From Candidatus Latescibacterota bacterium (GTDB lineage: Bacteria > Latescibacterota > UBA2968 > UBA8231), in assembly GCA_965217585.1 (NCBI GenBank), contig OZ244561.1, positions 6,976,001 to 7,040,000 on the forward strand: a stretch of DNA of 64,000 nucleotides. The letters are read 5' to 3'. Numbering within the stretch: position 1 is the first letter of the stretch; every line of letters begins with the position of its first letter. A program made the position numbers and the translations under genes. Below the pieces are notes generated by a model that did not search any database, was not told the DNA's origin, and saw nothing but the letters and a program-made list of their open reading frames with translations. This document shows, piece after piece, positions 2,998 through 64,000 of this stretch.

Positions 2998-4689
2998 TTA
3001 CAAGTCGCGGATTTCTCCACCTTCTACGAGCGCGATTAGACGGTCCGCTTCTAGGTCGTAGTGGCAATCGATTGTGCCCGAAGGCCACCTTACCTTTAGG
3101 CTATCCACCCGGCTCCGAGCGCCCAGACCAAAGTGGACTCGCGGATCTTGCCCGCCTAAAAAGCTCGATCCCGCCATTACCTCGCGCACCTGCTTTTCTC
3201 CCCCTGAGAAGACCGCCACCCGGGCACCCACGCCATCGCGGTTGCTCTGCTGCCCGACCAAGCGCAGCATGAGCCAGTGGCCGGCCGCATGGTCATTGCG
3301 CATCAAGGTGGGGCGGTCGTCTAGGTTCAGGACCAGCAGGTCCAAGTCGCCATCGTTGTCGTAATCGCCACAAGAACTGCCCCGGCTCACCCGGCGATCC
3401 TGCAGGGCCGCTACGCCTCTCACTTCCGCGAAGGTGCCGTCCCCCTGGTTTTCGAGGAGCTGGTTGGGTTGTTGGTAGGTCTCCTCGCCCAGCTGGAGCC
3501 GGTCTATGCGGGGATAGACGTGTCCGTTGGCCACAAAGAGATCGAGGTCGCCGTCGTGATCGTAGTCGAAGAAACAGGTCCCCCAGCTCACATAGGGTCG
3601 ACTTTTGTCTCCCAGTCTCGCCTTCAGGGTCGTGTCGAGAAAGAAACGCCCTGCTTCATTGCGGTAGAGGGTATTGTAATCGCCGGCGAAGTTGGTGACG
3701 AAGAGATCTAGGAAACCGTCCCCATCGTAATCGCCAAAGGCGGCACCCATGCCGGCTTGCCCCTTACCTTGGTAGCTGTAGGCCACCCCGGCTTCGACGC
3801 CCACCTCGCGAAAGGATCCATCCCCCTGGTTGTGGTAGAGCAAGTTCGGGGTCGAGTCGTTGGCAATGAATAAATCCGGCCAGCCGTCGCCATCGTAATC
3901 CGAGAATAGCACCGCGAAACCGTAGTGCTTGTCGCGGTCTTCCACGTCGGCACTCGTGGTGACGTCGGTGAAGGTGCCGTCGCCGTTGTTGCGGTAGAGC
4001 CGGTCTGCGGCTCCCCGCAGGCTGCGGGGTCCGCAAAACACCTCCAGGGATTTCCACTGGCAAAAGGCCCGGTCCGGCTGTGGGGAGTCTGGATCGAAAT
4101 CTAGGTAATTGGCCACGTAGAGATCCAGCTCACCGTCCAGATCGTAGTCGCCGAAAGCAGCCCCAGTACTCCACCGGGGATCATCCGCGTCGGCTTTGTG
4201 GGTGAAATCGGTGAAGGTGCCGTCGCCGTTGTTGCGGTAGAGCCGGTTGGGGCCGTAGTTGGTGATGTAGAGATCGGTATCGCCGTCGTTGTCGTAGTCT
4301 GCAGCCACGCAGCCCATGCCCCAGCCCGTATCGCCCACGCCGGCTTGGAGGGTGACGTCGGCGAAGCGGCCGTTGCCTAGGTTGCGGTAGAGCGCGTTGC
4401 GCAGATCATTTTCGGAACCCGCGGATGCGGCGCCGTTGACTAGGTAAATGTCGAGATAGCCGTCCCCATCGTAGTCGAGAAAGGCGGTGCCCCCGCCCTT
4501 GGCTTCGAGGATATGATTTTTTTTGCGACTCCCAGAGCGGTGTTGCCAGCGCAAGCCCGCCTTTTCTGCAACGTCTACAAACAAGGGTGAAGATTCCTCC
4601 GGAATCGCCGGAGGATTTTCGTCCCTTTGCCGTTCAGAGCCGCAGGTCAGCAGAGTGCAGGCCCCCCACAATGCCATCCAGATTCGCAC
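2998..4689 (-). CDS. CRTAC1-like protein (FG-GAP repeats plus ASPIC/UnbV domain), probable lipoprotein
   Basis: Repeated DYDxDGxxDL and LYRNNGDGTF motifs; C-terminal NRDGVGARV..HFGLG..VRWPSG; N-terminal LLTC lipobox-like. Confidence 0.9.
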   Translation of the reverse strand: MRIWMALWGACTLLTCGSERQRDENPPAIPEESSPLFVDVAEKAGLRWQHRSGSRKKNHILEAKGGGTAFLDYDGDGYLDIYLVNGAASAGSENDLRNALYRNLGNGRFADVTLQAGVGDTGWGMGCVAADYDNDGDTDLYITNYGPNRLYRNNGDGTFTDFTHKADADDPRWSTGAAFGDYDLDGELDLYVANYLDFDPDSPQPDRAFCQWKSLEVFCGPRSLRGAADRLYRNNGDGTFTDVTTSADVEDRDKHYGFAVLFSDYDGDGWPDLFIANDSTPNLLYHNQGDGSFREVGVEAGVAYSYQGKGQAGMGAAFGDYDGDGFLDLFVTNFAGDYNTLYRNEAGRFFLDTTLKARLGDKSRPYVSWGTCFFDYDHDGDLDLFVANGHVYPRIDRLQLGEETYQQPNQLLENQGDGTFAEVRGVAALQDRRVSRGSSCGDYDNDGDLDLLVLNLDDRPTLMRNDHAAGHWLMLRLVGQQSNRDGVGARVAVFSGGEKQVREVMAGSSFLGGQDPRVHFGLGARSRVDSLKVRWPSGTIDCHYDLEADRLIALVEGGEIRDL

Positions 4690-5615
4690 TATTCAGAACC
4701 TTTGAACTTTTCCGCCCGTTCCCGGGCTCGCCGCTCTTTTTGTTGTAAATCCCGGGCATTGAGTTCCCGGAAGCGCTGCAGGGCTTGCTGTCCCGCAGCG
4801 GTCCGTCCGGCGGACAAGTAGAGCTGCCCGAGGTTGAGGTAGGCTGCGGTCAGTCCCGTATCCAAGCGAACCGCCTCTTCGAGGAGTTGGAGCGCCTCGG
4901 AAATCCGTCCATCGTTCCTGGACAGGATGGCCAGATCAGTCATGGCCTGGGCGTTTTTCGGCTGCAATTCAAGTTGTTTCCGGTAGGCATTTTCCGCTTC
5001 GGCAAAGCGTCCCTGATACTTGTAGATGCTGCCCAGGCGACCATAAGCCGCGGCCAGCTTGGGATCCAGCTTCAGGGCCCGGCGATAGGCCGTCTCGGCC
5101 GAGTCTAGGTCGCCCTCGTGGGTGGAGTGCCGGTCGCCTCGATAGGAGTAGAGACTGCCTAGGATATAGAAATAGGCCTGCTGATCGGGAGCCAGAGAGA
5201 TGGCCTGCCGGGCCGCGGCCAGGCCCTGGTCGAGCAGGGGGCCGCGGTGAGTTACGGAGTACTTTCTGAGCAAGAATAGGGCGCGGGCGTAGAATACTTC
5301 TGAGCGGGTCGTGTCCAAGGCACTCGCCAGCCCCAGTGTTTCTTCGGCCCGCGCCAAGTCCCCCAGCTCTAGGTGGACGTGGCTCAGACCGACATAGGCC
5401 CGCACCGAGTCCTCGGCACCTTCCAGCGCTTCTCGAAAGGCTTCCAGAGCCGGCTGGTAGCGCTGGGAACGGAGATGCCGCTCGCCCAAGCGGTTTTTGG
5501 AATTCAGACCACCCGCAGTCCTGTGTTGGGGGCGGCTAGATGGGAACTCGCTGCTGGACTCCTTGCATCCAGACCAGAAAAAGAGTGCGGAGAGTATTGA
5601 GATAACTGGAAGCAT
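4689..5615 (-). CDS. Tetratricopeptide repeat lipoprotein
   Basis: FWSGC lipobox; TPR patterns (AYGRLGSIY..QGRFAEAENAYRK, AYLNLGQLY); overlaps the CRTAC1 start by 1 nt. Confidence 0.85.
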   Translation of the reverse strand: MLPVISILSALFFWSGCKESSSEFPSSRPQHRTAGGLNSKNRLGERHLRSQRYQPALEAFREALEGAEDSVRAYVGLSHVHLELGDLARAEETLGLASALDTTRSEVFYARALFLLRKYSVTHRGPLLDQGLAAARQAISLAPDQQAYFYILGSLYSYRGDRHSTHEGDLDSAETAYRRALKLDPKLAAAYGRLGSIYKYQGRFAEAENAYRKQLELQPKNAQAMTDLAILSRNDGRISEALQLLEEAVRLDTGLTAAYLNLGQLYLSAGRTAAGQQALQRFRELNARDLQQKERRARERAEKFKGSE

Positions 5616-5642: not shown

Positions 5643-7562
5643 TCAGTTCAGGACGCCGCACAATTCGATCATAGCCACGACCCCGCGCGGCACGAACTCT
5701 CCTAAGATCAGCCCTAGGAAAAAGGGGCGCAGCCGCTGGAACAACCTAGGACCTCCGAACCTCAGGACCATGCTTTTGATCGCCCAGGCTAGCAACACGC
5801 TGAAGAACATCTTGTTTGCAGCCATGCTTATGGGAAAACTAATCGGGTGAAAGGGCCACCAGATAAAACGCTGTTGGGCCAGCATGAACAGCGCCATCAA
5901 AACGCCGCCTATGGCGGTATAACCCCAGTACTCCCAGCGCGGTCCCTGGGGAGAAGCTATGCGGGTGGCTGCATTGTCGAAGGGCCATTGCGATTGTCCC
6001 CAGAAGAAATGGGAGGTATTGAGGCCACCGTGCACATAAGCTAGGTCCAGCATCATCCAGATCGAACTGCAGAAGGTGACCACAATTGCCACCAACATGC
6101 TCCAGAAGATCAGCCGCCGATTCTTTTTTACAGTCTCCTCGATTACCTTGAGGCCATTGGCACAGGAGGTCATCGTGAAAATGATGATGTCACTGGCCCA
6201 GACGTAGGTAAAGGCCAAGGCGATGATTCCGCTGGACCCCAGAGCCCGGGTGCCAAAACTGCCGACGATCACGTCCGAAGCGATGATCGGCGCAAAGAGG
6301 TAGGGGAATCCACCTTCGGCGATGATCCGCGTGATCCCCACAAAGAGCACAAAGGCGAAAAAGAGGAAGCACGGGGTAATCCAAGCCGGCAACCCCGACT
6401 GCCATAACCATAGACCCATAAAGGTCAGGCAGCCCAACAAGGTAAAGACCGCAGCCCGATAGGAGAGAATCTCGCCGGAATCGTCGATGGATGTCTCCTG
6501 TCCCACGGCCTTGCGCAAAACCTGCCGCAAGTGGCCGCGGGCATTCCACAGCCCAAAGAGCACTAGGACCGTAAAAGCGCCCAATCCCTGGTGGGACAAA
6601 ATGGGGTCGCCTCTCATCCAGTGACTGAGCATAGGATCGTGATACCCACCTCCCAAAAGGGCGAACGCGATCTCCTGCAGGACGTTGAGCAAAAAGAAGA
6701 AGCACAATCCGAGGGAGACCTCCCGGCGGATGAAATAGGTAAACCCGAGCATCATAAAGCTCACGCCGATCCTGACCCCGACCAGATCCCGGAAAAGATA
6801 GATGTATTCACCGCTTGTATTGATGTAGGGCATAAAGGGATAATAACGCGTCAATAGGTTGTGAAAATTGATGATAAAGGGGATGGCAAAGCCCAACCAC
6901 ATCAGCCAGTCCTTGAAAAAAGGATTGATCAAGGAAGGACGGTCGCCATCTCGGAGCATGGCAATGGGCAACTGGGTCATGGGAAAGACGAGGCGTTCGC
7001 TAGTGATCCACTGTTTCCGCAGAATGGCCATGATGCAGATCATGGACACGAAAAGCGACAGGGCAAAGGGCAGCCAGTGGAGTAAGGGAGGAAGCCAGAG
7101 TCTCCAGGGTACGCCCTGTCCTTTGGGGGCACCTTCGTAAAAGTTTCTGATCTGGGCCAATTCCCTATGGGGAATGATCCACTCCGGGATGTAGGGCAAT
7201 AGGCTCTCGCGCCAGTTGTTTTCCGGCGAGGCGTAGTAAATCACACTGGTGACTTTCGGCAGGAAGTAGGAGACGAACCCATCCGTGGTGACGCCTGAGC
7301 CCACGATCCACATGACGTAGATCTGGGCCAATTCGGCTGGGCTCAACATCCACCGGCGGCGGATCAACCCCACCAGGGGGTTGAGGAAGAGCACCAAGAC
7401 GAAAAACATGATCACGGGGCCCGGGGTGAAGAACCAGTTGCCGAACCCGGATGTCTTCAGTATCATGTCGGAGTACTGGAAACCAGCGCCGACCACCAGA
7501 CAACCTACCGCGCCGATGAGCAGGGCGCGAAAGCTGGGTACCCACGCAGAGGACGGGATCAC
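5643..7562 (-). CDS. Polytopic membrane protein, DUF6785/DUF6784-like (putative transporter)
   Basis: Many hydrophobic helices; YYASPENNW, LRKQW..ERLVFP, WWPFHP and LRFGGPRLF motifs shared with two paralogs. Start placed at GTG 7562 behind RBS GGAGAGG (ORF track start 7625). Confidence 0.85.
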   Translation of the reverse strand: MIPSSAWVPSFRALLIGAVGCLVVGAGFQYSDMILKTSGFGNWFFTPGPVIMFFVLVLFLNPLVGLIRRRWMLSPAELAQIYVMWIVGSGVTTDGFVSYFLPKVTSVIYYASPENNWRESLLPYIPEWIIPHRELAQIRNFYEGAPKGQGVPWRLWLPPLLHWLPFALSLFVSMICIMAILRKQWITSERLVFPMTQLPIAMLRDGDRPSLINPFFKDWLMWLGFAIPFIINFHNLLTRYYPFMPYINTSGEYIYLFRDLVGVRIGVSFMMLGFTYFIRREVSLGLCFFFLLNVLQEIAFALLGGGYHDPMLSHWMRGDPILSHQGLGAFTVLVLFGLWNARGHLRQVLRKAVGQETSIDDSGEILSYRAAVFTLLGCLTFMGLWLWQSGLPAWITPCFLFFAFVLFVGITRIIAEGGFPYLFAPIIASDVIVGSFGTRALGSSGIIALAFTYVWASDIIIFTMTSCANGLKVIEETVKKNRRLIFWSMLVAIVVTFCSSIWMMLDLAYVHGGLNTSHFFWGQSQWPFDNAATRIASPQGPRWEYWGYTAIGGVLMALFMLAQQRFIWWPFHPISFPISMAANKMFFSVLLAWAIKSMVLRFGGPRLFQRLRPFFLGLILGEFVPRGVVAMIELCGVLN

Positions 7563-7647
7563 GGTGCCTCTCCAGGTGCAGTGTATTTGGCTGCTGCGGA
7601 TCGAATATAGGCAAGATTCGAGCATTGGCCGAATATTTATTGAGGGC
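7133..7647. repeat. 515-bp near-identical direct repeat, copy 1 (copy 2 at 25231..25745)
   Basis: Constant offset of 18098; about 3 mismatches seen by eye, all near the gene start. Confidence 0.95.
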
Positions 7648-8038: not shown

Positions 8039-10027
8039 CTAATACATCTGGATCGTATTGCCTGTCATCCCAGTGAACCCATCTACGACCAGCCAGAACC
8101 CGCCTACCACGAATTGCCCCAAAATCATTCCTAGAAAAAACCAGCGCGTGGCACCGTAGCCGGCCGGGCCGGTAAATCTCAGAATAAGGGCCTTGACCAA
8201 CCAGGCTAAAAAGATGCTGAACCAGACACTGTTCAGGATCCACGTGCCGCTCACCACATAACCGATCGGGTGCAAGGGCCACCACAAAAGGTGTTGTCGC
8301 GCTAAGGTCAGCAAGGCCATGACTACAGCCCCGGCTCCGGTCCACCCCCACCCGGGCCAGTAAGGTCCGACCGGCGTCTCGATCAGGCGGCTGGCAACCA
8401 GGAAGGGCTCCTGGGCAAACCCGGAGAAATATTGTTGATGGAGGTTGATGGCGCCGTACTGGTAGCCCAATTTCAGGGTTGCGCAGATCGATACTACCAG
8501 GCCGATGCCCAAGGCCACTACCATCATCCCTAAGAGCCGCATACTGGAACCCCGCAAGCCGTGCAGCATGCGGATGCCGTTGGCACAAGGGGCCATCATA
8601 AAGACCAGAAGATCCGCAGCCCAGGCCAAGGTGTACTCCACTGCTATCGTGCCGACCGGCCCCAGAGCAGACGAGCCCACGCCGGACACCAGAAAACCCG
8701 CGCCCGATAACCCTTGTACAGCCGACGAGAGGCCGGCTTCGACGATCACCCGGGTAAGCGCCAAAAAGATGGTAAAGACGCCGAAGAGGAACACCAAGAC
8801 CGCCCAGCCCGGCATCCCGCTTCTCCCCAGCCAGAGTCCCATGATCCCCAACCCGACCACTAGGCCGATCACCGCGGTCCGGTAGGAGATCAACTCGTCC
8901 TCATCGGATTCTACTCCCCGACCCCAGACCTGCCTCCACACCTCCCACAGGTGGGACCGAGCTGTCCACAATCCCAGTAGCACCAAGACGATCATAGCAC
9001 CCATGCTCTGGTGGCTCAGCATGCCTCTCGTGGACCCTGTATGGCTGAACAAGTCGAGCTGTTCGGCACTGTAAATGCCCAGGATAGAGCAAACCGCCTC
9101 TTGGAGCTTGGCTAGCAAGAGAAAGAACCACAGGCTGAAGGAGATGCTGGTGTTGATGAAATAGGCCAGTCCCATCATCAGGTAGTTGAGCCGGATGGGA
9201 ATCGAGACCGCACCGCGGGCTACCAATAACTCGTAGTTTATATCGACTGCCGGCACAAATTCATAATAGCGGCTGAGCGCGAGGACGCTATTCAAGAGAA
9301 ACGGGATCGCAAAACCGACCCACATCACCGGATTCTTCAGGAAGGGCTTGACGCGCGAAGGCGGATCCTGGTCTTCGATCATGCCCAAAGGCACCTGGAC
9401 CAGCGGATACAGCAGCCGTTCGTGCTCCATCCACTGCCGGCGCAAAATGACCATCGAACAGATCAGCACCGTGTAGAAGCCACCCATGAACAGGAGCCAC
9501 CAGCTCAGAGGCTGGACCCAAGCTTCCCAGGGAACAGGCTGCCCCTGGGGCAGGCCTTCGTAAAACCACTTTACCGCTTCCTGATCCTGAGGGACCATCC
9601 AGGTGGAGATGTAGGGAATCAACTGCTCCGCCCAGTTGTTCTCCGGCGAGGCGTAGTAGAATACACCGGAGATGATGGCCAAGACCATGCCGGTAAATCC
9701 CCTGGAGGAGATCGCCGTGGCCAGCATCATCATCACGGTTATGAGGAGCAGTTCGCCGCGGGTAAAAAGCCACGACCGCCGCATCGCCCCCAACAGCGGC
9801 TGTACGAGAACCATCAACACGAACAACAGGAAGAAGGCCGCCGGGGTAGAAGAACTCAACCCCAACCGGGTCCCCTGAATGACGAACTCTCCATAGGGCA
9901 GCCCAGCGGCAATCAAGCCGCAAAGTAGCATCCCTGCCAGCATCGCGCGGAGACGAATCTTAGACGGGGTGACTTCTTCGCGTCCAGGCGGAGACTCAGC
10001 TTGAGTCTCTGGTTTCGCGAAATCCAT
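8039..10027 (-). CDS. Polytopic membrane protein, DUF6785/DUF6784-like (putative transporter)
   Basis: 662 aa, highly hydrophobic; YYASPENNW, LRRQW.EHERLLYPL, ELISYRTAV, WWPLHPIGY. Confidence 0.9.
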   Translation of the reverse strand: MDFAKPETQAESPPGREEVTPSKIRLRAMLAGMLLCGLIAAGLPYGEFVIQGTRLGLSSSTPAAFFLLFVLMVLVQPLLGAMRRSWLFTRGELLLITVMMMLATAISSRGFTGMVLAIISGVFYYASPENNWAEQLIPYISTWMVPQDQEAVKWFYEGLPQGQPVPWEAWVQPLSWWLLFMGGFYTVLICSMVILRRQWMEHERLLYPLVQVPLGMIEDQDPPSRVKPFLKNPVMWVGFAIPFLLNSVLALSRYYEFVPAVDINYELLVARGAVSIPIRLNYLMMGLAYFINTSISFSLWFFLLLAKLQEAVCSILGIYSAEQLDLFSHTGSTRGMLSHQSMGAMIVLVLLGLWTARSHLWEVWRQVWGRGVESDEDELISYRTAVIGLVVGLGIMGLWLGRSGMPGWAVLVFLFGVFTIFLALTRVIVEAGLSSAVQGLSGAGFLVSGVGSSALGPVGTIAVEYTLAWAADLLVFMMAPCANGIRMLHGLRGSSMRLLGMMVVALGIGLVVSICATLKLGYQYGAINLHQQYFSGFAQEPFLVASRLIETPVGPYWPGWGWTGAGAVVMALLTLARQHLLWWPLHPIGYVVSGTWILNSVWFSIFLAWLVKALILRFTGPAGYGATRWFFLGMILGQFVVGGFWLVVDGFTGMTGNTIQMY

Positions 10028-10031: not shown

Positions 10032-10400
10032 TTAAGGGCGAAAGCGTATAGAGTATAGGTCGGCGTCTTTCATCACAAAGCGGATGCGGACCGGCTGGCC
10101 GACAAGAGCCCCCACATCAGCGCTGGCTGAACCATACTGTGGCTCCGCATGCCAGGCGACGACGCGCTCAATTTCCATCTCCATAGATCTCGACGCTCTC
10201 GGACAAGTGGTCTCCATCCAGCGGCTGTCCCGTGGCATCCTGTATTTCCACGCGCAGGCTGCCCACCGCAGAGGTCGAGTGGTTGAGGACCAACTATGTA
10301 CCGAGCAGAATCCGTCCGTCCGCAACGTGGCTCTCCGCAACCGTATCGATGGATGCCTGTAGTGCTCTATGTAGTAGAGCGAAAGCTCGGTGGGGCTCCA
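10032..10400 (-). pseudogene. Frameshifted C-terminal relic of a putative glycoside-hydrolase-like (beta-propeller) gene
   Basis: ELSLYYIEHY..RRATLRTDGF, then a shifted frame LVLNHSTSAVGSLRVEIQDATGQPLDG..EIYGD, then back to EIERVVAW..GQPVRIRFVMKDADLYSIRF. The N-terminal bulk is missing. Confidence 0.7.
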
Positions 10401-10510
10401 CCGAAGGAAAGTATCGGACCGGTCGCCCTGAGCAAACCGCCGTTGCAGTCCCAGGGCCAGAACAGCCACCTGCACCGGTTTTGTCACCGCGTCCTATCTC
10501 AACTCTGATA

Positions 10511-16639: not shown

Positions 16640-16671
16640 CTGAATCCTCCTCGGCGTTAGTTCTCGATCCT

Positions 16672-49945: not shown

Positions 49946-50032
49946 GATAATTGCCGGAGGTGTATCGGTTCGCGCCGTAAGCCTCGCTACCATTAACCAG
50001 GGCATTTGCCCAACTCCATAAAGGAGGCCCCT

Positions 50033-51367: not shown

Positions 51368-51405
51368 GCTAGCTGACGGATAACACAATCAGGAGGTTGA
51401 TACCC

Positions 51406-54035: not shown

Positions 54036-54048
54036 TGCAGAACTTTGC

Positions 54049-54078
54049 TTGACAATTCACAAATTTTTTTCATATAAT
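54049..54078 (+). promoter_or_regulatory. Consensus sigma70 promoter of cluster C
   Basis: TTGACA-18 bp-TATAAT, then RBS AAGGAGGT before ATG 54133. Confidence 0.8.
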
Positions 54079-54132
54079 ATTTTATATATCCCGAGAGAAG
54101 AGAACCGCAATAACCTTCAAGGAGGTGGAATC

Positions 54133-56112: not shown

Positions 56113-56262
56113 GGCAAAAGAGAGAGCGCGGAGGGATTTTACTGTGTCGCGAGGCAGCCTCTCATCCATTCAGACAGCTGAATTTTCCGGAACCTATCGC
56201 AATCAGTCTGTGAGGTATTGACCGCCACAAAACCGCATGGTGCCCTCGAGGAGACGGCCCTC

Positions 56263-58308
56263 ATGATGCGATCTGCATGCAGCACCCTCGCCTTTGCCTG
56301 GGTGCTGCTTTTCTTTTTGGTCTTTGCCGCAGCAACGGCGACAGCCTGGGAGCAAAGGTCGTGGAGTCGGACAATCCACTATCACAGCACCTTCGAAGCG
56401 GATGCGGAAGGAGAAGGCCTCGTCCGGATCACCGCGGTGGACAGTTACCAGCTCTTTTTCAACGGCACCCCGATCGGTTCCGACGACGACTGGACGACCG
56501 TGGAGGCCTACCCGGTGCAGGTCAAGAGAGCGAACGAAATCCTGGTAGCTGTGACCCACAGCGGGACCGTGGACGGGAGCGGGCTCATCGTCGAGGTAGA
56601 GGTAGGCAATTTCAGGAGTTTCACGCGCCCGGGCAACCAGACGGATGCGTGGAGATGGTCGAGCGACGATCCAGAGGAGGTGGACTGGGATAAGGCACCT
56701 CTGGTCCAGAACGGCATCCTGGATATGAGAAAAATCCGGGATTTAGGCAACCTGAACCTCCTGGCCCTACCTGTGGCCGGCTTCCCCGGCGAGGTGGCGC
56801 TGGGAGACCCGCAGGAGGGGATCGTTCTGAGTCGGATCCGCGGCCGGAATCTGGCCCTGGACAAGCCCTCCAACCACACCGAAGCCAACGATGGCGTGCT
56901 CACCAGCCTCTGGAATGCCGGGGTGAACAGCCTCAACAAGTTTGTCAGCATCGACCTGCGGGACATCCGGCGGGTCAGCAGCGTGCGGGTGATTACCGGA
57001 GCGCCTAGGGGGAAAGAGACCTACCAGAACAACGCGCTCCGGGGCTATTCAATACAGGTGAGCGATGACCAGTTCCGCTGGTCAGAGGTAGGGGTGCTCC
57101 ACAACATCACCGACTACGAGGAGACCACCCTCCAGTTCCAGCCGGTCCTGACCCGCTACGTCCGGCTTGTCATCGCCGAGATCGACGGCATCAGCGCCCC
57201 GAAGGTGGCCGAAATCGAGGCCTACGGTCAGGGCTACAGTCCCAGAGGGATGTTTGTCTCTGATCCGCTGGATCTGGGGCAGGACGGGCCCAAGAACATC
57301 GGACAGATCACCTGGGAGGCAGAGATCCCTGAAAAGACGGCGCTCACTCTGCAGTTCCGGACCAGCGATGACGGGTCCACGTGGAGCGCGTGGACCCGGG
57401 AGTACGACGCGAGCGGCATCTTGATCGAAGCGCCGGAGCCGGCCCGCTTCCTCCAGTACCGCGTGCATCTCTCCACCCGGCAAGAAGAGATCACCCCTCG
57501 ATTCCGCGGGATTACAGTGGACTTTTCCACAGACGATATCCCCGCTGCAGCGGCCCGGGGCTACATCTCCCCGACCGCGGTAGAGATGGGAAAGGAGACG
57601 GCGTTTACCTATGCGCTCGATCTGGACATTGCTCCCCAGAACACCGGGGTGGAGCGGGTGATTCTCCAGGTCCCAGGGCCGGCGGTTCTGGACGAGACCA
57701 CGCCTGTGGAGGGGGCGGGCGGCTCTGCGGTGAATCTGGACCAGGTGGCCATGACCTCCAGAGGATGGGAGATCCCCTTTGATCCACCCCTCGAACAGGA
57801 TGCGCAACTGATTCTCCACTTCCGCACCACTCAGTACGCTATCTCTCACGAATTCCGGACGCACCTCCTCGGCCCTGACTCGGACAACCCCTTGAACGTG
57901 GTGGAGAACACCGAGGGCGGGGCCTCCTGGCGGACCACGGCGGCCCAGGTGCTGGACGAGGTCCTCCTGGAGGTGGGCGCTTCCCCTCCTGTGTTCACCC
58001 CCAATGGGGATAGTCGCAACGACTTTACGATCATCGAGTTCACCCTGGCCAAGGTGGCAGATGTACAGGTCGCCATCGCCATCTTCAGACTGGACGGGTC
58101 CCTGGTCAGGACCCTGCATGCGGAACGTCTCTCAGCAGGAAGCTATACCCGCTTCTCGAATGCCTCCCAGCCGGCTGGGAGTCCAGGTTATTGGGAGGGG
58201 AGGGATGAGCATAGGAACTTCGTGCCTCCGGGGATCTATATCTATCAGGTGAAAGTGCGGTCCGACGAGAAGAGGCAGCGCATAGGGAGTGTAGGGGTCG
58301 TCTATTAG
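56263..58308 (+). CDS. Secreted discoidin/Ig/FlgD-tail protein (divergent subtype)
   Basis: Signal peptide ATA-W; F5/8C-like NLALDKP..NDG..W..IDL..YSIQVSDD..W; VFTPNGDSRND; ends VGVVY. Confidence 0.85.
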   Translation: MMRSACSTLAFAWVLLFFLVFAAATATAWEQRSWSRTIHYHSTFEADAEGEGLVRITAVDSYQLFFNGTPIGSDDDWTTVEAYPVQVKRANEILVAVTHSGTVDGSGLIVEVEVGNFRSFTRPGNQTDAWRWSSDDPEEVDWDKAPLVQNGILDMRKIRDLGNLNLLALPVAGFPGEVALGDPQEGIVLSRIRGRNLALDKPSNHTEANDGVLTSLWNAGVNSLNKFVSIDLRDIRRVSSVRVITGAPRGKETYQNNALRGYSIQVSDDQFRWSEVGVLHNITDYEETTLQFQPVLTRYVRLVIAEIDGISAPKVAEIEAYGQGYSPRGMFVSDPLDLGQDGPKNIGQITWEAEIPEKTALTLQFRTSDDGSTWSAWTREYDASGILIEAPEPARFLQYRVHLSTRQEEITPRFRGITVDFSTDDIPAAAARGYISPTAVEMGKETAFTYALDLDIAPQNTGVERVILQVPGPAVLDETTPVEGAGGSAVNLDQVAMTSRGWEIPFDPPLEQDAQLILHFRTTQYAISHEFRTHLLGPDSDNPLNVVENTEGGASWRTTAAQVLDEVLLEVGASPPVFTPNGDSRNDFTIIEFTLAKVADVQVAIAIFRLDGSLVRTLHAERLSAGSYTRFSNASQPAGSPGYWEGRDEHRNFVPPGIYIYQVKVRSDEKRQRIGSVGVVY

Positions 58309-58309: not shown

Positions 58310-61063
58310 ATGTCCGTCTTGCTGGAAACTGCACAGTGGATCGCGAGGAAATCTGGAAGTTCGAAAAACCCCGGGTTATTACCTAGGACTATGGGGGCGA
58401 ACGCGGTAAAACTGAGACGGCCCTGGATCGCTGTGGTCTGCCTCATTCTGGCCTTTGCCCCGGCAGCTTTCGGCCAGTTTATTTCCCGGGACTACTATCC
58501 GCTCTGGGGGGAGGACTACGAGAACTACGGCTCCATAGGGTACCGGGATGCCCTGCAGCCGATCATGGCCGCGGGGGGCCGGCCAGGGGCGGCGTCATGG
58601 GTGCGGCCGGCTTGGGTGAGAGGCTTCGGCGTGGAGCTGGAGCGGCGCCAGTACGATCCCTTCGGCCATTACTTAGTGGATGGGCTGGATATCTTCCGCC
58701 TCGAGGAGTTCCGCACCATCGCCCCCAATAAAGGGAGCATTGTTTTCAAGAGCGCACTCTACGCGAATATCTTCCAGAACCTGGTCATTGCCAGCGACCA
58801 GGTCTCGGGGTTGGCCAGTCGGATCATCATCGGCGACGCAATCCGGACCAAGTTCACTCCCCTGACCCTGGATCTGACCCGCCTGAACGGGGTGCGGTGG
58901 GATGCGGCGACCCGCAAAAACCGCTTCACCGTTTTAGGCTCCCGAATTTCCAACCCGGGCAGAATAGGGTTTGAGGATGCCCGGGAGTTTGCGACCTACC
59001 TGTACGGCGGGCGCTGGGAGAATACGCTCGGAGATATCCTCACCTTGGGGATCTCGTACGTCACCCTGTTCCGCACCGACACCCTGCTACGCGGCAATCA
59101 CATCCAGCGCGGCGTGGTGCCCACCGATCTGGGAGGGGTGCAGGATCTCTATGTCATTTTCAGCGATGATTCTCCAGAGGACGGCGCGGGTGCCGAGGTC
59201 CACCAGATGGAGATCTACATCAATGGGGAGAAGGCCGCTATCCAGCCCGAGATCGCGCTCTTGCCCCAGGTGGACATGTCCATCAAGTTCTCTCCGAATG
59301 TCCAGGATAAGAGACCGCTCCCCCCAGAGTATCTCTCCTACTTTAGAGCCGATGGTCCGTGGCTCCGCCAGGTCATCAACTACAACACGTCCGTAGCTCC
59401 CCTCAGGCGGCTCCAGCAACTGCTGGACAAAAACGGCGTTTTGGTCTTCTTCAATGGGGGTAGACCCCTTGAGGCCAACGCTACAGATGTGCTGGTCTTC
59501 AAGTACGCCATTCCTTCCGCGGCCCGCTCTGTCCGCTTCCGTGCCCTGGTGGCCAACGATTACTCGATCGATGTGGGAACCACGCTGAAAAACTGGGACG
59601 ACTGGCACAATGTGAAGCGGGCCCGGAACCAGGAGAGAAGCCGCTCAAACCTGGGATGGGTGAGCTTCGAATACGGCTTCCCCTCGGGCCTGGTGACCTA
59701 TGGCATGGATGTCGATCTGCGCGTTCTCGGTGCCCACATCCGGGCGGAGGTCGACGACAACATCAGCTATTACGCCTATCCGGGCACCGGCGGGGACCGA
59801 CAGCGCCGCCAGGTCCGCCCCTATTTCATCCATTTCTTCCGCCCTTTTGACCGTCTGGACGTGGGGGCCGAAGTCTTCGATATGCCGGCCTCCTACACCA
59901 CCTCCTTTCCGACCATCGAGCCGCTCGCGGCCGCGCAACCCGTGGGCTTCACCTCGCTGGTCGAGGACAACGACGACCGCGATGAGTGGGCCGACGCCGT
60001 AGATCAGGATGGGGTCTTCCCCGGACTGGACGAAGACAGGGACGGAGTCATCGACACAAACGTCAATCGCAATGGGAGCCCGGACTACCTGGAGCCATTC
60101 CTGATGTATTATGTAGATCCGGACGATTTTGTCTACGGCGATGACTTCAACAACAACGGCGTTGTAGACGCCCGCGAGGACGACAACCGGCCGGACTACC
60201 CCTACAACCTGGACCGACGGGGACTCCATCTATTCTCCAATCTGTGGCTCGCGCCCAACCTCAGGAATACCATCGGCAGGTACCAGGTGCGGCGGCCCGC
60301 AGGCGGTGGTCGCAACCGGGTAATCTACGACGAGTTGGCCTACACCGCGGCCTGGCAGGACCTGGGAGAACTGAAGTTCAACTACCTGCTCAAACGGGTG
60401 CGCGACGACATCCCGGACGATGTGCGGGGCGGCTTTCTCACCACCACCGGCTTCGTCTCCGAGGGTGCCATCCGTCCGGACCTCCGCGCCCTGCGCAACA
60501 GCCTGGTCCACCTCCTCTACTTAGAGACACAGTATACCGGCATCCCCGGCCTGAATGTGGTGAACAAGCTGCGCTACGAGATCAATGACCAGCGCGCAGA
60601 CGAATTTGCCGACGGGACCTTTCAGGAGAAGGCCCGGCAGCGGGACTGGGCCGTGGTGTCCAGGGCCGACTATAGCTGGAGGCGGGGAGATCTCACCCTC
60701 ACCCCCATGGTGAAACTGCGGCTTCAGAAGAAGATCCGGCCCTCATCCGGCCGCGACCCGTTTCTCTACACCCGCCATCTGATCCCCATCCTGCGGCTGG
60801 ACTATGCCTTCGGCCGCACCACGGTCCTGCGGGTGGGGTTCCAGGGGTTTCCGTTGAAGGAACAGTTCCGCAACAAAGCCTGGCCCTTCAACCGCTACGA
60901 CGCCACCGGCCAGGTCGTGGCGTTCCAGAACAGGGGAAACTACTCCGGATTCGATCTGAGTCTGAACATGGGGTGGGTGCGCACGCAGCGGGAGTTCAGG
61001 AGCGAGCACAGCAGCCGGTCGGGCTCCAACAGCGAGTTGTTCATCCAGGTGTTCATGGAATAA
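58310..61063 (+). CDS. Large putative outer-membrane beta-rich protein with Asp/Asn-rich insert (subtype II)
   Basis: IGDAIRTKFTP, SDDSPEDG, VANDY, EDNDDRD..FPGLDED.D..PDYLEPFL..GDDFNNNG..PDYPY; ends ELFIQVFME. True start may be further downstream (e.g. 58391). Confidence 0.85.
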   Translation: MSVLLETAQWIARKSGSSKNPGLLPRTMGANAVKLRRPWIAVVCLILAFAPAAFGQFISRDYYPLWGEDYENYGSIGYRDALQPIMAAGGRPGAASWVRPAWVRGFGVELERRQYDPFGHYLVDGLDIFRLEEFRTIAPNKGSIVFKSALYANIFQNLVIASDQVSGLASRIIIGDAIRTKFTPLTLDLTRLNGVRWDAATRKNRFTVLGSRISNPGRIGFEDAREFATYLYGGRWENTLGDILTLGISYVTLFRTDTLLRGNHIQRGVVPTDLGGVQDLYVIFSDDSPEDGAGAEVHQMEIYINGEKAAIQPEIALLPQVDMSIKFSPNVQDKRPLPPEYLSYFRADGPWLRQVINYNTSVAPLRRLQQLLDKNGVLVFFNGGRPLEANATDVLVFKYAIPSAARSVRFRALVANDYSIDVGTTLKNWDDWHNVKRARNQERSRSNLGWVSFEYGFPSGLVTYGMDVDLRVLGAHIRAEVDDNISYYAYPGTGGDRQRRQVRPYFIHFFRPFDRLDVGAEVFDMPASYTTSFPTIEPLAAAQPVGFTSLVEDNDDRDEWADAVDQDGVFPGLDEDRDGVIDTNVNRNGSPDYLEPFLMYYVDPDDFVYGDDFNNNGVVDAREDDNRPDYPYNLDRRGLHLFSNLWLAPNLRNTIGRYQVRRPAGGGRNRVIYDELAYTAAWQDLGELKFNYLLKRVRDDIPDDVRGGFLTTTGFVSEGAIRPDLRALRNSLVHLLYLETQYTGIPGLNVVNKLRYEINDQRADEFADGTFQEKARQRDWAVVSRADYSWRRGDLTLTPMVKLRLQKKIRPSSGRDPFLYTRHLIPILRLDYAFGRTTVLRVGFQGFPLKEQFRNKAWPFNRYDATGQVVAFQNRGNYSGFDLSLNMGWVRTQREFRSEHSSRSGSNSELFIQVFME

Positions 61064-61067: not shown

Positions 61068-63860
61068 ATGGGTACAAAGACGTTTGTCATATCCCTGCTC
61101 GTTCTGAGCGGCATCGCGGCCGGCGGGGACCGGGCCGCGGCCCAGCTTCTGTCCCGGCCCTTGCCGGAGTATTCCAACTACGCCATCGAGGGCTACAGGC
61201 GGATGGGTCGGGAGGCCCACGAACGGCTCACCAACCTGATTTACGACGAGTTCGGGAACCTGCTCATGGACGGAACGGAGATTTACCGGCTGTCCCAGGC
61301 CCACCCTGCCTTCGACGATCCGAGGACGGGCTATAGAGAGGCCGGCAGTGTCTTCCGCAAGGGCGTTCTCTACCACGACTATATGGCCCGGCTGATGGTG
61401 TCCCAGGACACCTACGCCGGCCCCCAGCAGCGGCTGATCATCGGCGACCGGGTCCGGACCCGCTTTACCTCCCTGACCATGGACCTGGCCACCCTCAACG
61501 GGATCCGGTGGGATACGGATCTGCCCCGCCACCAGTTCACCCTAATCGCTTCCCGCGTCGACCGGCCGATCTTCGGTCTGGAGGCGATCTTCGACTATGA
61601 GCCGGCTTACACTGAGCCCATTACCCGGGGGCTGTCCGATCTGGTTCTGACCACTTACCTTTTGGGAGGGCACTGGCACACCCGGGTGGGGATCTTCGAC
61701 CTGGGTGCCACCTATGTCAACCAATTCCGCGTGGATACTCAGGTGGGCTTGCGGCACAACAGCTTCAAAGGGGCCTTGCCGATACGCGAGCCCGGGGGCC
61801 TGGCGCCGGCTGTGCGGCCGTCGTCCATCGAGTACCTGGTGGTCAAGTTCGCCGATGGGACAGACAAGGACGGCGAGGGAGCCCGGGTGTTCGACGTGCG
61901 CATCTTTATCAACGGGGTGCAGCGGGACGACATCCGGCCGCGCATCACCCGGCACGATACAGAGCTCATCAACACCACCTACCCCAACAGGGACCGGTTC
62001 TTCCCCCCAAACCGCTCCATCCCTCCCTACGTGGAGTTGCTCAAAGGGTTCCTGCCCGAGGAGACGGTTCCGTCCGCGGGCTTTCTGGAGGCCAGCCGCA
62101 CCGAGTACCTCCTCTACTGGTTCGAGATGCCCTCTGAGGGCGTCCGGGAAGTCTCCTTCGAGGCGCTGGTAGCCAACGACTACGACATCAGCCTGGCCGA
62201 AGTTTACACCGCCAATCCGCTCGCCTCGCAAAACCAGCCTGAGAGCAGAAACCGCGCCACCTATTTCTACCGGGTGCAGGGGTCGAAGGGTCGCGTTGCC
62301 GACCTGTCCAATCTGCGCTGGGTGCGGTTCAACTACGGCCGCCAGACCGGCGCCAGCGTGGCAGGGCTCAACCTCTCCACCGAGGTACTCGGTTTTCAAC
62401 TGCAGATGGAGTACGCTGGCAACTTTAACTACTGGCAGTACCCCAACTTTGGGGGCAAATACCACGACAGGCGGGCGAGCGCGTATTATGTCAATGTAAA
62501 GAAGAGTTTCCAGGACTTCTCCCTCGGCGGGGAGTATTTCAACATTTCGCCTTACTACACCACCAGGTTGTCCATCCAGAGCGGGCAATTCAACGAATAC
62601 ACCGGACCTTATTTTGGGGAGATCGGCGGCAGCTTTGAGGTCAACTACAACAACACGCTTGAAGTGGATCTGGTGGATGACAACGACGATCGGGATCCCT
62701 TCCCCGATACCCACTTCCTCCCCTCTAAGGGAGACAATAACGGGATCTTTCCCGGCCTGGATGAGGACCAGGACGGCCGGTCCGATACCAATCAGAACAA
62801 CAACAGCCTGCCCGACTATTTCGAGCCCTTCCTGCTCTACGAAGTGGACCCCGACGACTTTGCCTACGGCGATGACATGAACAACAACGGGGTCATCGAC
62901 GTGCGCGAGAACGACGACAAGCCCGACTACCCCTACGATCAGGACTTGCAGGGGTTTCACCTGTTCGGAGGGTTAAATCTGGGGAGGGGATTGACCCTGA
63001 CCCTGGGCCATCTGGACACCCGCCAGATCATCGGCGGTGGCCGCAACCGCGCCACCTATGGGAAGCTGGACTACGTCAGAGACCTCCCTCTTCTGGGCGA
63101 GATCCGTCTGATCGATTTCCTCAAGGGGGTGCGGGACGACATCCAGAACGACGTTTTCCGCTACGGTTTTAACCACACCTTCGGCCCCCTGGGCCCCATC
63201 ATCCCCGTGGGCACCTTCGGGGTGAATCCGGAGGATGTGGTGGGCATTGGAGTGACGGAGTTCGAGGATCCGCGCCGCCTGCGGAACAGCCTGGTCAACA
63301 CCTTCTTTCTCGAGGGGCGGTTGAAGCAGTTACAGAATTTCAACCTCAGATCGAACCTGAAATACGAGGTCAACTTTCAGCGAGAAACCTCCTTCCAGGA
63401 GGACAACAGGATAGGGGTATGGACCTCGGTGGTGGCCGCCGATTACAGGTGGGAGATAAGGGGGTTGAGCATCCGGCCGCAAATGAAGTACATGGTCCAG
63501 CGGCGGAGCGATCAGAAAGAAGTGATGCAGCCCATCTTCGAGACCTTCTTCTACCCGATCCTGAGACTGGACTACAAGCTGACTCCTCAGTCCGTGCTCA
63601 AAGCAGGCGTGCAGGGATTGCCGCCAATTCCCAGCGTCTTCCACGACCTGCACAACGACTCTAGGGATTACCAGTCTGAGGACTATCTCGTCATGCTCTC
63701 CAACACCTCTGTGTACAGCGGCTACGGCCTGAGCTTCAACATGGGGTACCAGCTCAGGAAGCTACAGATGGAGGATAGAAGCCGCAAGGTAGAGGACATC
63801 GACTATTCCCTCTTCTTCATCCGGCTGATCGCCGGCCTGAGACTGTCGGAGGCGCGCTGA
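61068..63860 (+). CDS. Large putative outer-membrane beta-rich protein with Asp/Asn-rich insert (subtype II, tandem)
   Basis: Signal peptide AAA-Q; same motif series; ends FFIRLIAGLRLSEAR. Confidence 0.85.
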   Translation: MGTKTFVISLLVLSGIAAGGDRAAAQLLSRPLPEYSNYAIEGYRRMGREAHERLTNLIYDEFGNLLMDGTEIYRLSQAHPAFDDPRTGYREAGSVFRKGVLYHDYMARLMVSQDTYAGPQQRLIIGDRVRTRFTSLTMDLATLNGIRWDTDLPRHQFTLIASRVDRPIFGLEAIFDYEPAYTEPITRGLSDLVLTTYLLGGHWHTRVGIFDLGATYVNQFRVDTQVGLRHNSFKGALPIREPGGLAPAVRPSSIEYLVVKFADGTDKDGEGARVFDVRIFINGVQRDDIRPRITRHDTELINTTYPNRDRFFPPNRSIPPYVELLKGFLPEETVPSAGFLEASRTEYLLYWFEMPSEGVREVSFEALVANDYDISLAEVYTANPLASQNQPESRNRATYFYRVQGSKGRVADLSNLRWVRFNYGRQTGASVAGLNLSTEVLGFQLQMEYAGNFNYWQYPNFGGKYHDRRASAYYVNVKKSFQDFSLGGEYFNISPYYTTRLSIQSGQFNEYTGPYFGEIGGSFEVNYNNTLEVDLVDDNDDRDPFPDTHFLPSKGDNNGIFPGLDEDQDGRSDTNQNNNSLPDYFEPFLLYEVDPDDFAYGDDMNNNGVIDVRENDDKPDYPYDQDLQGFHLFGGLNLGRGLTLTLGHLDTRQIIGGGRNRATYGKLDYVRDLPLLGEIRLIDFLKGVRDDIQNDVFRYGFNHTFGPLGPIIPVGTFGVNPEDVVGIGVTEFEDPRRLRNSLVNTFFLEGRLKQLQNFNLRSNLKYEVNFQRETSFQEDNRIGVWTSVVAADYRWEIRGLSIRPQMKYMVQRRSDQKEVMQPIFETFFYPILRLDYKLTPQSVLKAGVQGLPPIPSVFHDLHNDSRDYQSEDYLVMLSNTSVYSGYGLSFNMGYQLRKLQMEDRSRKVEDIDYSLFFIRLIAGLRLSEAR

Positions 63861-64000
63861 TGAGAGATCGTCTCATTCCCCTCCTGTTGCTCGTCGCCTG
63901 CTGTCTCGGGGTCTGCCCCCGGGCTTGGGCCCAGGAGGAGATCTGGACGAGAAAGCGCCAGGAGAAGGAGGTCCCATCGGTGCCGGCGATCGTGTCCCAT
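63860..64000 (+). CDS. Secreted protein, 3'-partial (not in the ORF track)
   Basis: TGATG coupling with the upstream stop; MRDRLIPLLLLVACCLGVCPRAWA-QEE.. signal peptide; frame open to the window end. Confidence 0.75.
   Translation, partial: MRDRLIPLLLLVACCLGVCPRAWAQEEIWTRKRQEKEVPSVPAIVSH

Follow-up and report, generated by a model that had tools for sequence, protein, structure and literature searches.

A recurrent envelope cassette of tailed lectin-like proteins and predicted giant outer-membrane barrels in a Latescibacterota genome

The stretch of DNA considered here (the window) covers 64,000 nucleotides, positions 6976001-7040000 of contig OZ244561.1 (assembly GCA_965217585.1), from a Candidatus Latescibacterota bacterium whose genome is a single contig of 7,323,734 bp, 94.6% complete and 6.9% contaminated by marker counts. 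It was analysed by its list of open reading frames (ORFs), by Pfam and NCBIfam models, and by all-against-all BLASTP of 39 translated ORFs. Four paralogous families recur in it: LEAD, a CBM9-like leader; TAIL, a discoidin domain with a tail of type IX secretion system (T9SS) type; B900, a predicted barrel of about 900 residues; and DUF6785+DUF6784, present as three full genes and one fragment. The name LIPO is used for an additional lipoprotein family. The paralogy is far beyond chance, with BLASTP E-values of 1e-48 to 0 between B900 pairs, down to 1e-173 between TAIL pairs, about 1e-150 to 1e-173 between DUF6785 pairs and 1e-5 to 1e-57 between leaders. An earlier note, made from the letters of the window alone, had proposed at least three repeats of an undescribed multi-component envelope system, clusters A, B and C. 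These clusters are indeed present gene for gene and their recurrence is real, but the coordinates given, starting at 2998, left out the end of a fourth cluster at 46-2930. In the genome this fourth cluster occupies 6963178-6978927, in the order B900, TAIL, B900, TAIL, TAIL, leader.

The eight TAIL genes of the window encode a discoidin-type domain, a middle part of about 300 residues and a C-terminal CHU_C/FlgD_ig tail. F5_F8_type_C or F5_F8_type_C_2 scores above its cut-off in three of the eight, and a profile of the TAIL core matches the CBM32 domains of chitosanase, sialidase and hyaluronidase as well as neuropilin b1 (E 5e-9 to 1e-3); the proteins taken for surface binders in the earlier note do carry a CBM32-like discoidin domain. 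Their tails match type-B and, more weakly, type-A T9SS sorting models. The type-B model CHU_C (PF13585, cut-off 27) is exceeded in six of the eight and missed in two (20.4 and 23.9 bits), the type-B model TIGR04131 stays under its cut-off of 35 wherever it matches, and two reach the cut-off of 23 set for the type-A model TIGR04183. As for the secretion machinery, PorU (627.5 bits) and SprA (483.5 bits, or 604.8 including neighbours in frame) exceed their cut-offs in the genome, and a PorV-like gene adjoining porU reaches 153.8 bits, under its cut-off of 250. Models of GldM, GldL and PorP found no match in the genome and were silent in the control genomes too; since these searches had no positive control, the three are reported as not found rather than as absent. 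The GldK model, likewise used with no positive control, gave only generic FGE-sulfatase matches in the genome of at most 80.6 bits against a cut-off of 350. The motor and ring of the T9SS may be either too diverged or replaced by something else. The TAIL proteins are probably T9SS-type cargo.

The four B900 genes complete within the window encode proteins of 866-930 residues, none of which is matched by a Pfam or NCBIfam family at E<=0.01. The AlphaFold2 model of the protein at 10511-13186, built on a 44-row alignment, has a mean pLDDT of 71.7 and a pTM of 0.72, with long antiparallel strands from about residue 140 onward. Two regions are modelled with low confidence, namely the N-terminal 140 residues and an Asp/Asn-rich stretch at about 490-614, and both are strongly conserved in the alignment. 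The second follows the pattern VxDNDDxD ... DxNxD ... NDxxPDYPY, with invariant columns that include D521, N522, D523, D524, D526, D530 ... D591, N595, D599, D604 and D608, and, judged by eye, it resembles tandem calcium-binding loops set into the barrel. The matches listed by Foldseek against the PDB were outer-membrane barrels plus one plastid TOC-TIC entry; they include SlpA, LptD, FimD/PapC, MtrB, XusA and porins, with TM-scores of only 0.13-0.25. A VIA search with the same model, which does not depend on Foldseek, returned membrane beta-barrels in 50 of 50 rows, bacterial outer-membrane proteins except for a few mitochondrial or plastid ones. SlpA came first (Z 13.2, 419 residues aligned, root-mean-square deviation (rmsd) 8.0 A), and PelBC (Z 9.8), the PgaA-type 4y25 (Z 9.5) and BcsC (Z 8.6) appeared further down.

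Because the VIA rows mix porins, ushers, Omp85 proteins, LptD, TonB-dependent transporters and exporters without a gap, no barrel family was assigned to B900, and kinship with any specific one was rejected in view of the Foldseek TM-scores. Deinococcus SlpA, the giant barrel of the S-layer deinoxanthin-binding complex (7zgx, 8agd, 8ae1), is the best match (Foldseek E 1e-8) and is also a very large barrel, whereas TM-scores of 0.17-0.18, rmsd values of 8-20 A, an identity of 10-11% and the lack of an SLH-type match in B900 set the two apart; judging from the model, they would resemble each other only at the level of a large outer-membrane barrel. Nor is B900 a PorP/SprF protein by model, as neither PF11751 nor TIGR03519 matches it and it is about three times the PorP/SprF size. 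AlphaFold2, Foldseek and VIA agree with the outer-membrane placement first suggested for the 900-residue protein, and B900 is modelled as a very large outer-membrane barrel in a family of its own. Its profile finds 1,084 proteins at E<=1e-3 among 1.84 billion representative ones, 366 at E<=1e-30.

Copy number was estimated with hidden Markov models (HMMs), built from the window paralogues, on a crude gene call for the whole genome (longest non-overlapping ORFs, n=5,672). They detected 76 B900, 149 TAIL, 71 DUF6785 and 46 LEAD proteins, and a further 92 proteins match the tail alone; these counts are lower bounds because the caller loses genes to long spurious opposite-strand ORFs. Merged tblastn footprints amount to 214,217 bp for B900, 367,578 bp for TAIL (stretches above 1.2 kb), 149,846 bp for DUF6785 and 34,836 bp for LEAD, together 766 kb or about 10% of the DNA. 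When labelled genes with no more than two unlabelled ones between them are grouped into a locus, 49 loci hold B900, with TAIL in 43, LEAD in 27, DUF6785 in 25 and the lipoprotein in 13, and the recurrent, co-oriented envelope cassette of the earlier note is thereby a reality of the whole genome. Of the 76 B900 genes, 39 are immediately preceded on the same strand by TAIL and 18 by a further B900; TAIL being just 149 of the 5,672 ORFs, the adjacency is not due to chance. The same clustering is found in other genomes of the phylum. Indeed, TAIL lies directly upstream of 75 of the 97 B900 genes in 76 loci examined together with 10 kb on either side. These loci belong to other Latescibacterota assemblies, most of which are named, and were taken as the closest relatives of the cluster-A barrel and not as a random sample; a few come from records titled Gemmatimonadetes, Bryobacterales or Woeseia metagenome-assembled genomes, labels that are unconfirmed. 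Five of the 97 stand at a locus edge, and LEAD and DUF6785 occur within 10 kb of B900 in 51 and 20 of the 76 loci, respectively.

Each family was also searched in the same 61 genomes of the phylum, the source genome included. B900 is present in 37. The TAIL core is found in 36, all B900-positive, and the lone B900-positive genome without it is 68% complete; LEAD is found in 33, again all B900-positive. The lipoprotein family occurs in 36, in two of them via its C-terminal TonB-C-like part alone, and is missing from three B900-positive genomes that are 64-89% complete. The distribution of DUF6785 is separate: it occurs in 47 genomes, 24 with B900 and 23 without. Family f9 has B900 in 13/13 genomes and DUF6785 in 0/13, and thus supplies all 13 B900-positive genomes that lack DUF6785, whereas families f2, f3 and f7 have DUF6785 in 16/16, 3/3 and 5/5 and B900 in 0/16, 0/3 and 1/5. 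The genomes of f2 (many of them complete) and f3 hold 21-56 first-look DUF6785 candidates each and no B900, TAIL, lipoprotein or LEAD in this search. No test statistic is given because related genomes are not independent, but the pattern by family is unambiguous. The co-occurrence of TAIL, the lipoprotein family and the leader with B900 across the 61 genomes agrees with the earlier proposal, whereas its union of the four families in one obligate system is contradicted by DUF6785. What is secure is that the cassette is phylum-specific, that a tailed lectin-like protein and a novel giant barrel make up its obligate pair, and that lipoprotein and CBM9-like companions share the distribution of this pair.

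The most complete form of the cassette is found outside the window. Eight f9 loci from six genera display one order, namely TAIL, a protein of about 320 residues, one or two B900, a TPR protein of about 1,100 residues with a YfiO/BamD-like end, DUF5683, a 153-residue protein, ExbB, ExbD, ExbD, DUF4159 and a long lipoprotein of about 400 residues, and the beginning of this order is also seen at loci of families f13 and f4. The 320-residue protein matches PorV_fam (PorV/PorQ) in 10/10 cases (best E 2.8e-21) and PorP/SprF in 9/10, both below the curated cut-off, and the solved PorV 6h3i_F at E 5e-7. In the source genome, cluster C continues past the window with a third B900, a 1,082-residue TPR protein, DUF5683, a match to the 153-residue protein, PhyH, DUF4159, a 412-residue long lipoprotein, FG-GAP/ASPIC, TPR, FG-GAP, DUF6785, ExbB and ExbD. 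Comparable loci, with most of these parts, lie at 0.24, 3.75, 4.36-4.39, 4.89 and 6.01 Mb; the one at 0.24 Mb reads, on one strand, TAIL, PorV-like, B900, TPR, ExbB, ExbD, ExbD, lipoprotein. The four best genome matches to the f9 ExbB (176-222 bits) are located 3-25 kb from a B900, in four of these loci, against 98.6 bits for the ExbB that adjoins the canonical TonB at 0.665 Mb. The absence of a TonB motif reported at first holds within the window but not beyond it, where cluster C runs into ExbB, ExbD and a TonB-C-like lipoprotein. This continuation into motor genes is new with respect to the earlier note, as is the fact that distant families keep the gene order and add a PorV/PorP-like barrel after TAIL. 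In its ancestral, complete form the cassette is probably coupled to a motor of ExbBD type, together with a TonB-C-like lipoprotein and a very large TPR protein.

The lipoprotein family LIPO has 21-24 copies in the genome, 22 of 24 within 15 kb of a B900. Its long form of about 400 residues shares the first 250 or so with the short form of cluster B and ends in a TonB-C-like part. In the aligned N-termini of the long form, a short hydrophobic stretch leads to a lipoprotein-type cysteine, and a globular domain of about 250 residues comes next; neither the inner-membrane anchor helix nor the proline-rich spacer of TonB is present. At the C-terminus, TonB_C (PF03544, cut-off 24.6) scores 22.5, 17.4 and 13.6 bits at the same relative place in 3/3 proteins. 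A profile of seven long forms against PDB sequences has TonB as its top four matches and as 12 of its top 17 (best E 0.0022), and the alignment displays the TonB-C pattern G-x-V...F-x-I...G-x-V.

The LEAD proteins, three in the window, have about 315-322 residues, a signal peptide and no significant Pfam match. Their description as CBM9-like finds support in the nearest ESM Atlas clusters (0.97-0.95), in which CBM9_1 is carried by 13%, 37% and 94% of members, the direct match to PF06452 (CBM9_1) being weak (at best 14.6 bits, E 0.032, in one of three leaders). LEAD and the 320-residue protein of the complete loci were considered as a single family and this was rejected, as the LEAD HMM misses the latter, which is PorV/PorP-like. 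All three leaders end, within the last three residues of the chain, in T-A-V-(E/G)-x-x-(S/T)-W-(A/G)-R-I-K-(S/A)-(Q/S)-(F/L), the invariant columns being T274, A275, V276, W281, R283, I284 and K285. Such a motif could be a sorting or docking signal.

DUF6785 was modelled from the copy at 8039-10027 (pLDDT 84.9, pTM 0.88). In Foldseek, barley Yellow Stripe 1 (HvYS1, 7wst and 7wsr) matches at E 3.8e-8 and 8.4e-8 with TM-scores of 0.63-0.71, the next match having an E-value of 0.038. As YS1 is the sole strong fold match, DUF6785 is taken to have the OPT/YSL fold (TC 2.A.67) over the whole chain, without detectable sequence similarity: Pfam gives just DUF6785/DUF6784 at E<=0.01 and no OPT family, and a DUF6785 profile against PDB sequences does not retrieve YS1, only two chance-level rows at E 2.4. 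A cluster look-up provided no names for its relatives. The model agrees with the inner-membrane assignment of the earlier note, DUF6785 being a predicted polytopic transporter. A further difference from the OPT/YSL transporters is its expansion, with about 71 copies here and tens in genomes without the cassette. Within 10 kb of a B900 lie 33 of 70 DUF6785 genes, whereas 500 random placements gave 12.9 on average and never more than 22; within 1 kb lie 2 of 70, and 29 of 71 belong to B900 loci. At 3.75 and 7.03 Mb, DUF6785 directly precedes ExbB in a same-strand run starting with three B900 genes. DUF6785 is securely an independent OPT-fold carrier family, and DUF6785/DUF6784 thereby receive a first functional placement, with tens of copies per genome.

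The neighbourhood of B900 or DUF6785 loci comprises 574 unlabelled ORFs, of which the 20 largest of 45 groups were scanned by Pfam, singletons left out. They include TPR proteins (70, joined by their repeats), SurA-like peptidyl-prolyl isomerases (PPIases; 28), PhyH-type dioxygenases (26), GFO/IDH/MocA oxidoreductases (12), sulfatases (8), DUF4159 (8), CotH proteins with the same tail (8), enolase-superfamily MR_MLE proteins (5), aldo/keto reductases (AKR; 5) and sigma-54 activators with Reg_prop/Y_Y_Y sensors (3). The 28 SurA-like paralogues near cassettes, six of them directly downstream of B900 on the same strand, suggest that the giant barrels or the lectins have periplasmic chaperones of their own. 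The CotH-kinase-domain proteins, with an FlgD_ig-type tail, are represented by 317841-320324 of the genome and seven paralogues.

One to three TAIL genes directly upstream of one to three B900 genes thus form the cassette core, in loci set among sulfatases, oxidoreductases, sugar-acid-type enzymes and DUF6785. The complete copies also carry genes of a proton-driven motor, and the reading we favour is a new kind of nutrient-capture device. Spelled out, this reading, to which we give a little less than an even chance, is that the cassettes are motor-coupled surface capture and uptake devices, functionally convergent with SusC/SusD. The T9SS would export the lectins and hold them at the surface, where they would bind glycan-bearing substrates. 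The giant barrels, possibly hetero-oligomers of tandem paralogues, would then pass material across the outer membrane, a step that the ExbBD motor would energise by way of the TonB-C-like lipoprotein and the TPR protein. Import would be completed by inner-membrane carriers that are inherited separately, DUF6785 among them, and the dozens of diverged copies would stand for substrate specificities, as in the polysaccharide utilisation loci (PULs) of Bacteroidota.

The likeness to SusC/SusD PULs lies in the massive expansion of paralogous barrels paired with surface binding proteins, and in the catabolic enzymes, inner-membrane carriers and Reg_prop/Y_Y_Y regulators nearby. As in TonB-dependent uptake, ExbB/ExbD and a TonB-C-like domain are encoded with the barrels of complete loci. 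The cassette differs from SusC/SusD in that B900 lacks Plug and TonB_dep_Rec domains, no SusD-like family is present and the binders are proteins with a T9SS-type C-terminal domain (CTD) instead of lipoproteins; it differs from TonB systems in that the TonB-C-like domain is borne by a lipoprotein. Among known systems, the T9SS tails, the PorV/PorP-like barrel and ExbBD do find their counterparts, whereas the giant barrel maps to no known family.

Several points weigh against uptake by a motor-coupled barrel. None of the four window B900 proteins matches Plug (PF07715) or TonB_dep_Rec at E<=0.01, whereas the Plug model finds 25 canonical Plug-domain receptors elsewhere in the genome, and no TonB box can be named in B900, of which the conserved N-terminal 140 residues or so are modelled with low confidence. 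The TonB-C-like call depends on sub-threshold scores (22.5 versus 24.6; PDB E 0.0022), and the protein in question is a lipoprotein, not an inner-membrane-anchored TonB. Of eight strong ExbB loci, only four have a B900 within 15 kb, and clusters A and B, like most cassettes, lack a motor. Being orthologous, the f9 loci stand for a single evolutionary observation or a few, and the longest-ORF gene calls are crude, some genes being lost to opposite-strand ORFs. No glycoside hydrolase family appears among the neighbours scanned (20 largest of 45 groups), and OPT-family carriers are known for peptides and metal chelates rather than glycans.

A bolder version of motor-coupled capture, which we hold to be doubtful, sees in the cassette a new class of outer-membrane machine driven by the proton-motive force. 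In it, an ExbB-ExbD stator acting via the TonB-C-like lipoprotein and the TPR scaffold of about 1,100 residues would drive hetero-oligomers of giant plug-less barrels, which would act alongside lectins that arrive by a T9SS-type route. Since GldK, GldL and GldM were not detected while SprA, PorU and a PorV-like protein are present, the motor module may also replace GldLM in exporting or moving CTD proteins.

Surface display without uptake, in which B900 proteins would be outsized anchors or shuttles for T9SS lectins in an adhesive or protective coat, is rather unlikely but is the main rival. Two publications (PMC9143113, PMC12618676) present SprB-SprF of Flavobacterium johnsoniae and PG1035-PorP-PorE of Porphyromonas gingivalis as type-B CTD cargo with a cognate PorP/SprF shuttle or anchor, and the order of cargo gene then barrel gene is the same in the cassette. 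TAIL-B900 adjacency and co-occurrence are strict, CHU_C is above its cut-off in most window TAIL proteins, and clusters A and B do without a motor. SprA and PorU are encoded in the genome along with a PorV-like protein, and in complete loci a PorV/PorP-family barrel follows the cargo gene. Unlike these pairs, however, the cassette adds B900, which is three times the size of PorP/SprF and has no sequence match to PorP/SprF or PorV. Its tails are ambiguous between types A and B and under the NCBIfam type-B cut-off, and it is linked to ExbBD, not GldLM, in Latescibacterota, not Bacteroidota. In complete loci B900 is not needed as an anchor because the separate PorV/PorP-like barrel of about 320 residues is there, and a display role leaves ExbBD, the TonB-C-like lipoprotein, the tandem barrel triplets and the catabolic neighbourhood unexplained.

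A motor-driven machine for adhesion or motility, as in Myxococcus Agl-Glt or Bacteroidota gliding, is improbable. The Agl-Glt gliding complex of Myxococcus comprises a TolQR/ExbBD-type motor, TonB-C-like domains, large TPR proteins, barrels and a surface adhesin. The complete loci resemble this inventory part by part (ExbB/ExbD, the TPR protein of about 1,100 residues, the TonB-C-like domain, barrels, adhesin-like lectins), in a comparison of parts lists and not of homology, and GldK, GldL and GldM were not found in the genome, in searches with no positive control. A further publication describes Bacteroidota SprF-type outer-membrane proteins as driven by an internal track (PMC12635249). However, 76 barrels and 149 lectins spread over about 49 loci form a pattern of substrate diversification and not of one apparatus, most loci have no motor, the catabolic neighbourhood points away from motility as well, and no Glt homology was found, none having been searched for.

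The original proposal that leader, TAIL, B900 and DUF6785 constitute one obligate trans-envelope system, with DUF6785 as its dedicated inner-membrane part, is still less probable. DUF6785 is enriched near B900, is held by 25 of the 49 B900 loci and 20 of the 76 loci elsewhere, and directly precedes ExbB twice, but its phyletic pattern is separate (f2, f3 and f7 versus f9), and the majority of its genes lie outside B900 loci, with 2 of 70 within 1 kb of the barrel. A polymer export device, in which TPR protein and barrel would work as in the BcsC, PelBC and PgaA exporters and the lectins would bind the product, is the least probable of all: a TPR protein of about 1,100 residues does follow the barrels in complete loci and VIA lists PelBC, PgaA-type 4y25 and BcsC among many barrels, but these rows are no better than porins, ushers or Omp85, no glycosyltransferase or polymerase family occurs in the recurrent neighbour families covered by Pfam (the 20 largest of 45), and a polymer exporter is not expected in 76 copies.

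Latescibacterota are widespread, uncultured degraders of complex organic matter. A cassette that takes up about a tenth of a 7.3-Mb genome and occurs in most sampled families of the phylum would be the main substrate interface of the phylum. The cassette joins T9SS-type sorting and an ExbBD/TonB-like motor around B900, which is absent from the family libraries searched; to our knowledge, these two systems are not known to work together. If it is a true uptake device, it would be a solution convergent with the SusC/SusD loci of Bacteroidota. No description of the cassette was found in the literature searched, which leaves out most subscription journals, and within the same bounds full-text searches gave no paper on DUF6785, on Latescibacter with T9SS or on FlgD Ig-like domains with secretion. 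Among papers on Latescibacterota and TonB, none concerns such a system by its title or the start of its abstract. A genome analysis of Latescibacteria predicts non-specific porins and inner-membrane carriers and does not mention the cassette in the passages concerned (PMC4454575).

The features of the window are collected in Table 1.

Table 1. Genes and other features of the window, in window coordinates; scores are in bits.
Feature	Coordinates	Strand	Matches and remarks
Fourth cluster, end only	46-2930	+	TAIL then leader; rest lies upstream of the window
TAIL, last lectin-like gene of fourth cluster	46-1851	+	CHU_C 35.4, FlgD_ig 32.1, F5_F8_type_C 23
Leader (LEAD), fourth cluster	1983-2930	+	35% identity to 21105-22064, E 2e-57; no Pfam match at E<=1
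FG-GAP/ASPIC (CRTAC1-like), last gene of cluster A	2998-4689	-	FG-GAP_3 184.7, UnbV_ASPIC 74.5
TPR protein, cluster A	4689-5615	-	Lipoprotein-type N-terminus (...FFWSGC); many TPR families match
DUF6785+DUF6784, cluster A	5643-7625	-	DUF6785 403.9, DUF6784 87.5
DUF6785+DUF6784, cluster A, modelled copy	8039-10027	-	DUF6785 411.3
151-aa ORF between B900 and DUF6785, cluster A	10032-10487	-	No Pfam/NCBIfam match
B900 (891 aa), cluster A	10511-13186	-	No Pfam/NCBIfam match; AlphaFold2 model
TAIL (1150 aa as called), directly upstream of B900, cluster A	13340-16792	-	F5_F8_type_C 46.3, CHU_C 31.6
TAIL (706 aa as called), cluster A	16672-18792	-	FlgD_ig 44.2, CHU_C 32.3; TIGR04183 23.9 (cut-off 23)
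TAIL (796 aa as called), cluster A	18844-21234	-	CHU_C 45.5, FlgD_ig 31.7
CBM9-like leader, cluster A	21105-22064	-	CBM9_1 weak: 14.6, E 0.032
rve-family transposase	22512-23414	-	Pfam
MBL	24242-24922		Pfam
Truncated duplicate (203 aa) of the 5' end of DUF6785 gene 5643-7625	25112-25723	-	99.4% identity over 164 aa
668-aa protein	25804-27810	+	No Pfam/NCBIfam match
Amidase	28044-29447		Pfam
Aldo/keto reductase, last gene of cluster B	29507-30424	-	Aldo_ket_red 187.1
DUF6785+DUF6784, cluster B	30430-32613	-	DUF6785 395.5, DUF6784 102.4
LIPO short form (255 aa), cluster B	32402-33169	-	Lipobox LGLSSC
TAIL, cluster B	33179-35050	-	CHU_C 29.1; start overlaps B900 stop by 4 bases
B900 (866 aa), cluster B	35047-37647	-	38% identity to 10511-13186 over 908 columns
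TAIL (793 aa), cluster B	37659-40040	-	F5_F8_type_C 37.6, FlgD_ig 33.4, CHU_C 29.6
TAIL (596 aa, minimal form), cluster B	40053-41843	-	FlgD_ig 33.9; CHU_C 20.4, under cut-off
Small lipoprotein (133 aa), cluster B	41840-42241	-	Lipobox MLGGC; 37% identity to 42253-42669
Small lipoprotein (138 aa), cluster B	42253-42669	-	Lipobox LSSGC; only 2 genome places match
CBM9-like leader, cluster B	42788-43756	-	BLASTP to 21105-22064 E 2e-14
SurA-like PPIase	44057-45481	+	Rotamase_2 48.6; SurA_N_3 weak
Creatininase	46124-47002		Pfam
Sulfatase	48602-49945		Pfam
Two tandem Peripla_BP_6 genes	50006-51367, 51397-52665	+	Pfam; 74% identical
297-aa ORF after the Peripla_BP_6 pair	52690-53583	+	NCS2/xanthine permease models, first half only (positions 2-208/407)
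726-aa CTD protein, first gene of cluster C	53875-56055	+	Two FlgD_ig stretches, 62.7; type-A-like T9SS tail
TAIL, cluster C	56218-58308	+	F5_F8_type_C_2 54.5; CHU_C 23.9, under cut-off; stop abuts B900 start
B900 (917 aa), first of three tandem, cluster C	58310-61063	+	27% identity to 10511-13186, E 1e-58
B900 (930 aa), second of three tandem, cluster C	61068-63860	+	33% identity to 58310-61063
B900 (997 aa), third of three tandem, cluster C	63860-64000, past window end	+	Genome ORF 7039860-7042853

Some of these features call for comment. The TAIL protein of the fourth cluster has 44% identity to that at 18844-21234 (BLASTP), of which the true start is probably further downstream than called. 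A paralogue of the FG-GAP/ASPIC protein closing cluster A is found in the continuation of cluster C, and the CTD protein opening cluster C reaches 35.4 bits with TIGR04183 (NCBIfam), against a cut-off of 23. The 151-residue ORF of cluster A matches four genome places by tblastn, one of them inside a 516-residue ORF, and resembles the C-terminal part of a 516-residue protein family with seven members near these loci; on this likeness it is probably the relic of a longer gene. The ORF following the Peripla_BP_6 pair is probably a truncated permease gene, given the half-length match to the permease models.

Between clusters A and B, DNA of 515 bp is duplicated (7133-7647 and 25231-25745), covering the 5' end of a DUF6785 gene and the region upstream of it; located near the rve transposase, this duplication is a recent rearrangement associated with an insertion sequence. 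The 668-residue protein may belong to a 676-residue family with six members near the loci, a membership that is unconfirmed. The sulfatase, amidase, aldo/keto reductase, creatininase and MBL genes pointed out earlier as catabolic neighbours are all recovered by Pfam.

Contigs from four metatranscriptome libraries of one study cover 25-28 of the 30 bins of cluster B at 95-99% identity, which indicates a close relative and not this strain. Such contigs prove neither transcription, strand nor a single transcript, and uncovered bins are uninformative. Single contigs span the TAIL/B900, B900/TAIL, TAIL/TAIL and TAIL/lipoprotein/leader junctions. At 41600-43900, where the leader and the small lipoproteins lie, contigs have a word depth of 43-124 against about 10 elsewhere; in all four libraries this is 4-10 times the depth of contigs on the TAIL and B900 genes further downstream, which hints, without being proof, that this part has a stronger transcript or one of its own.

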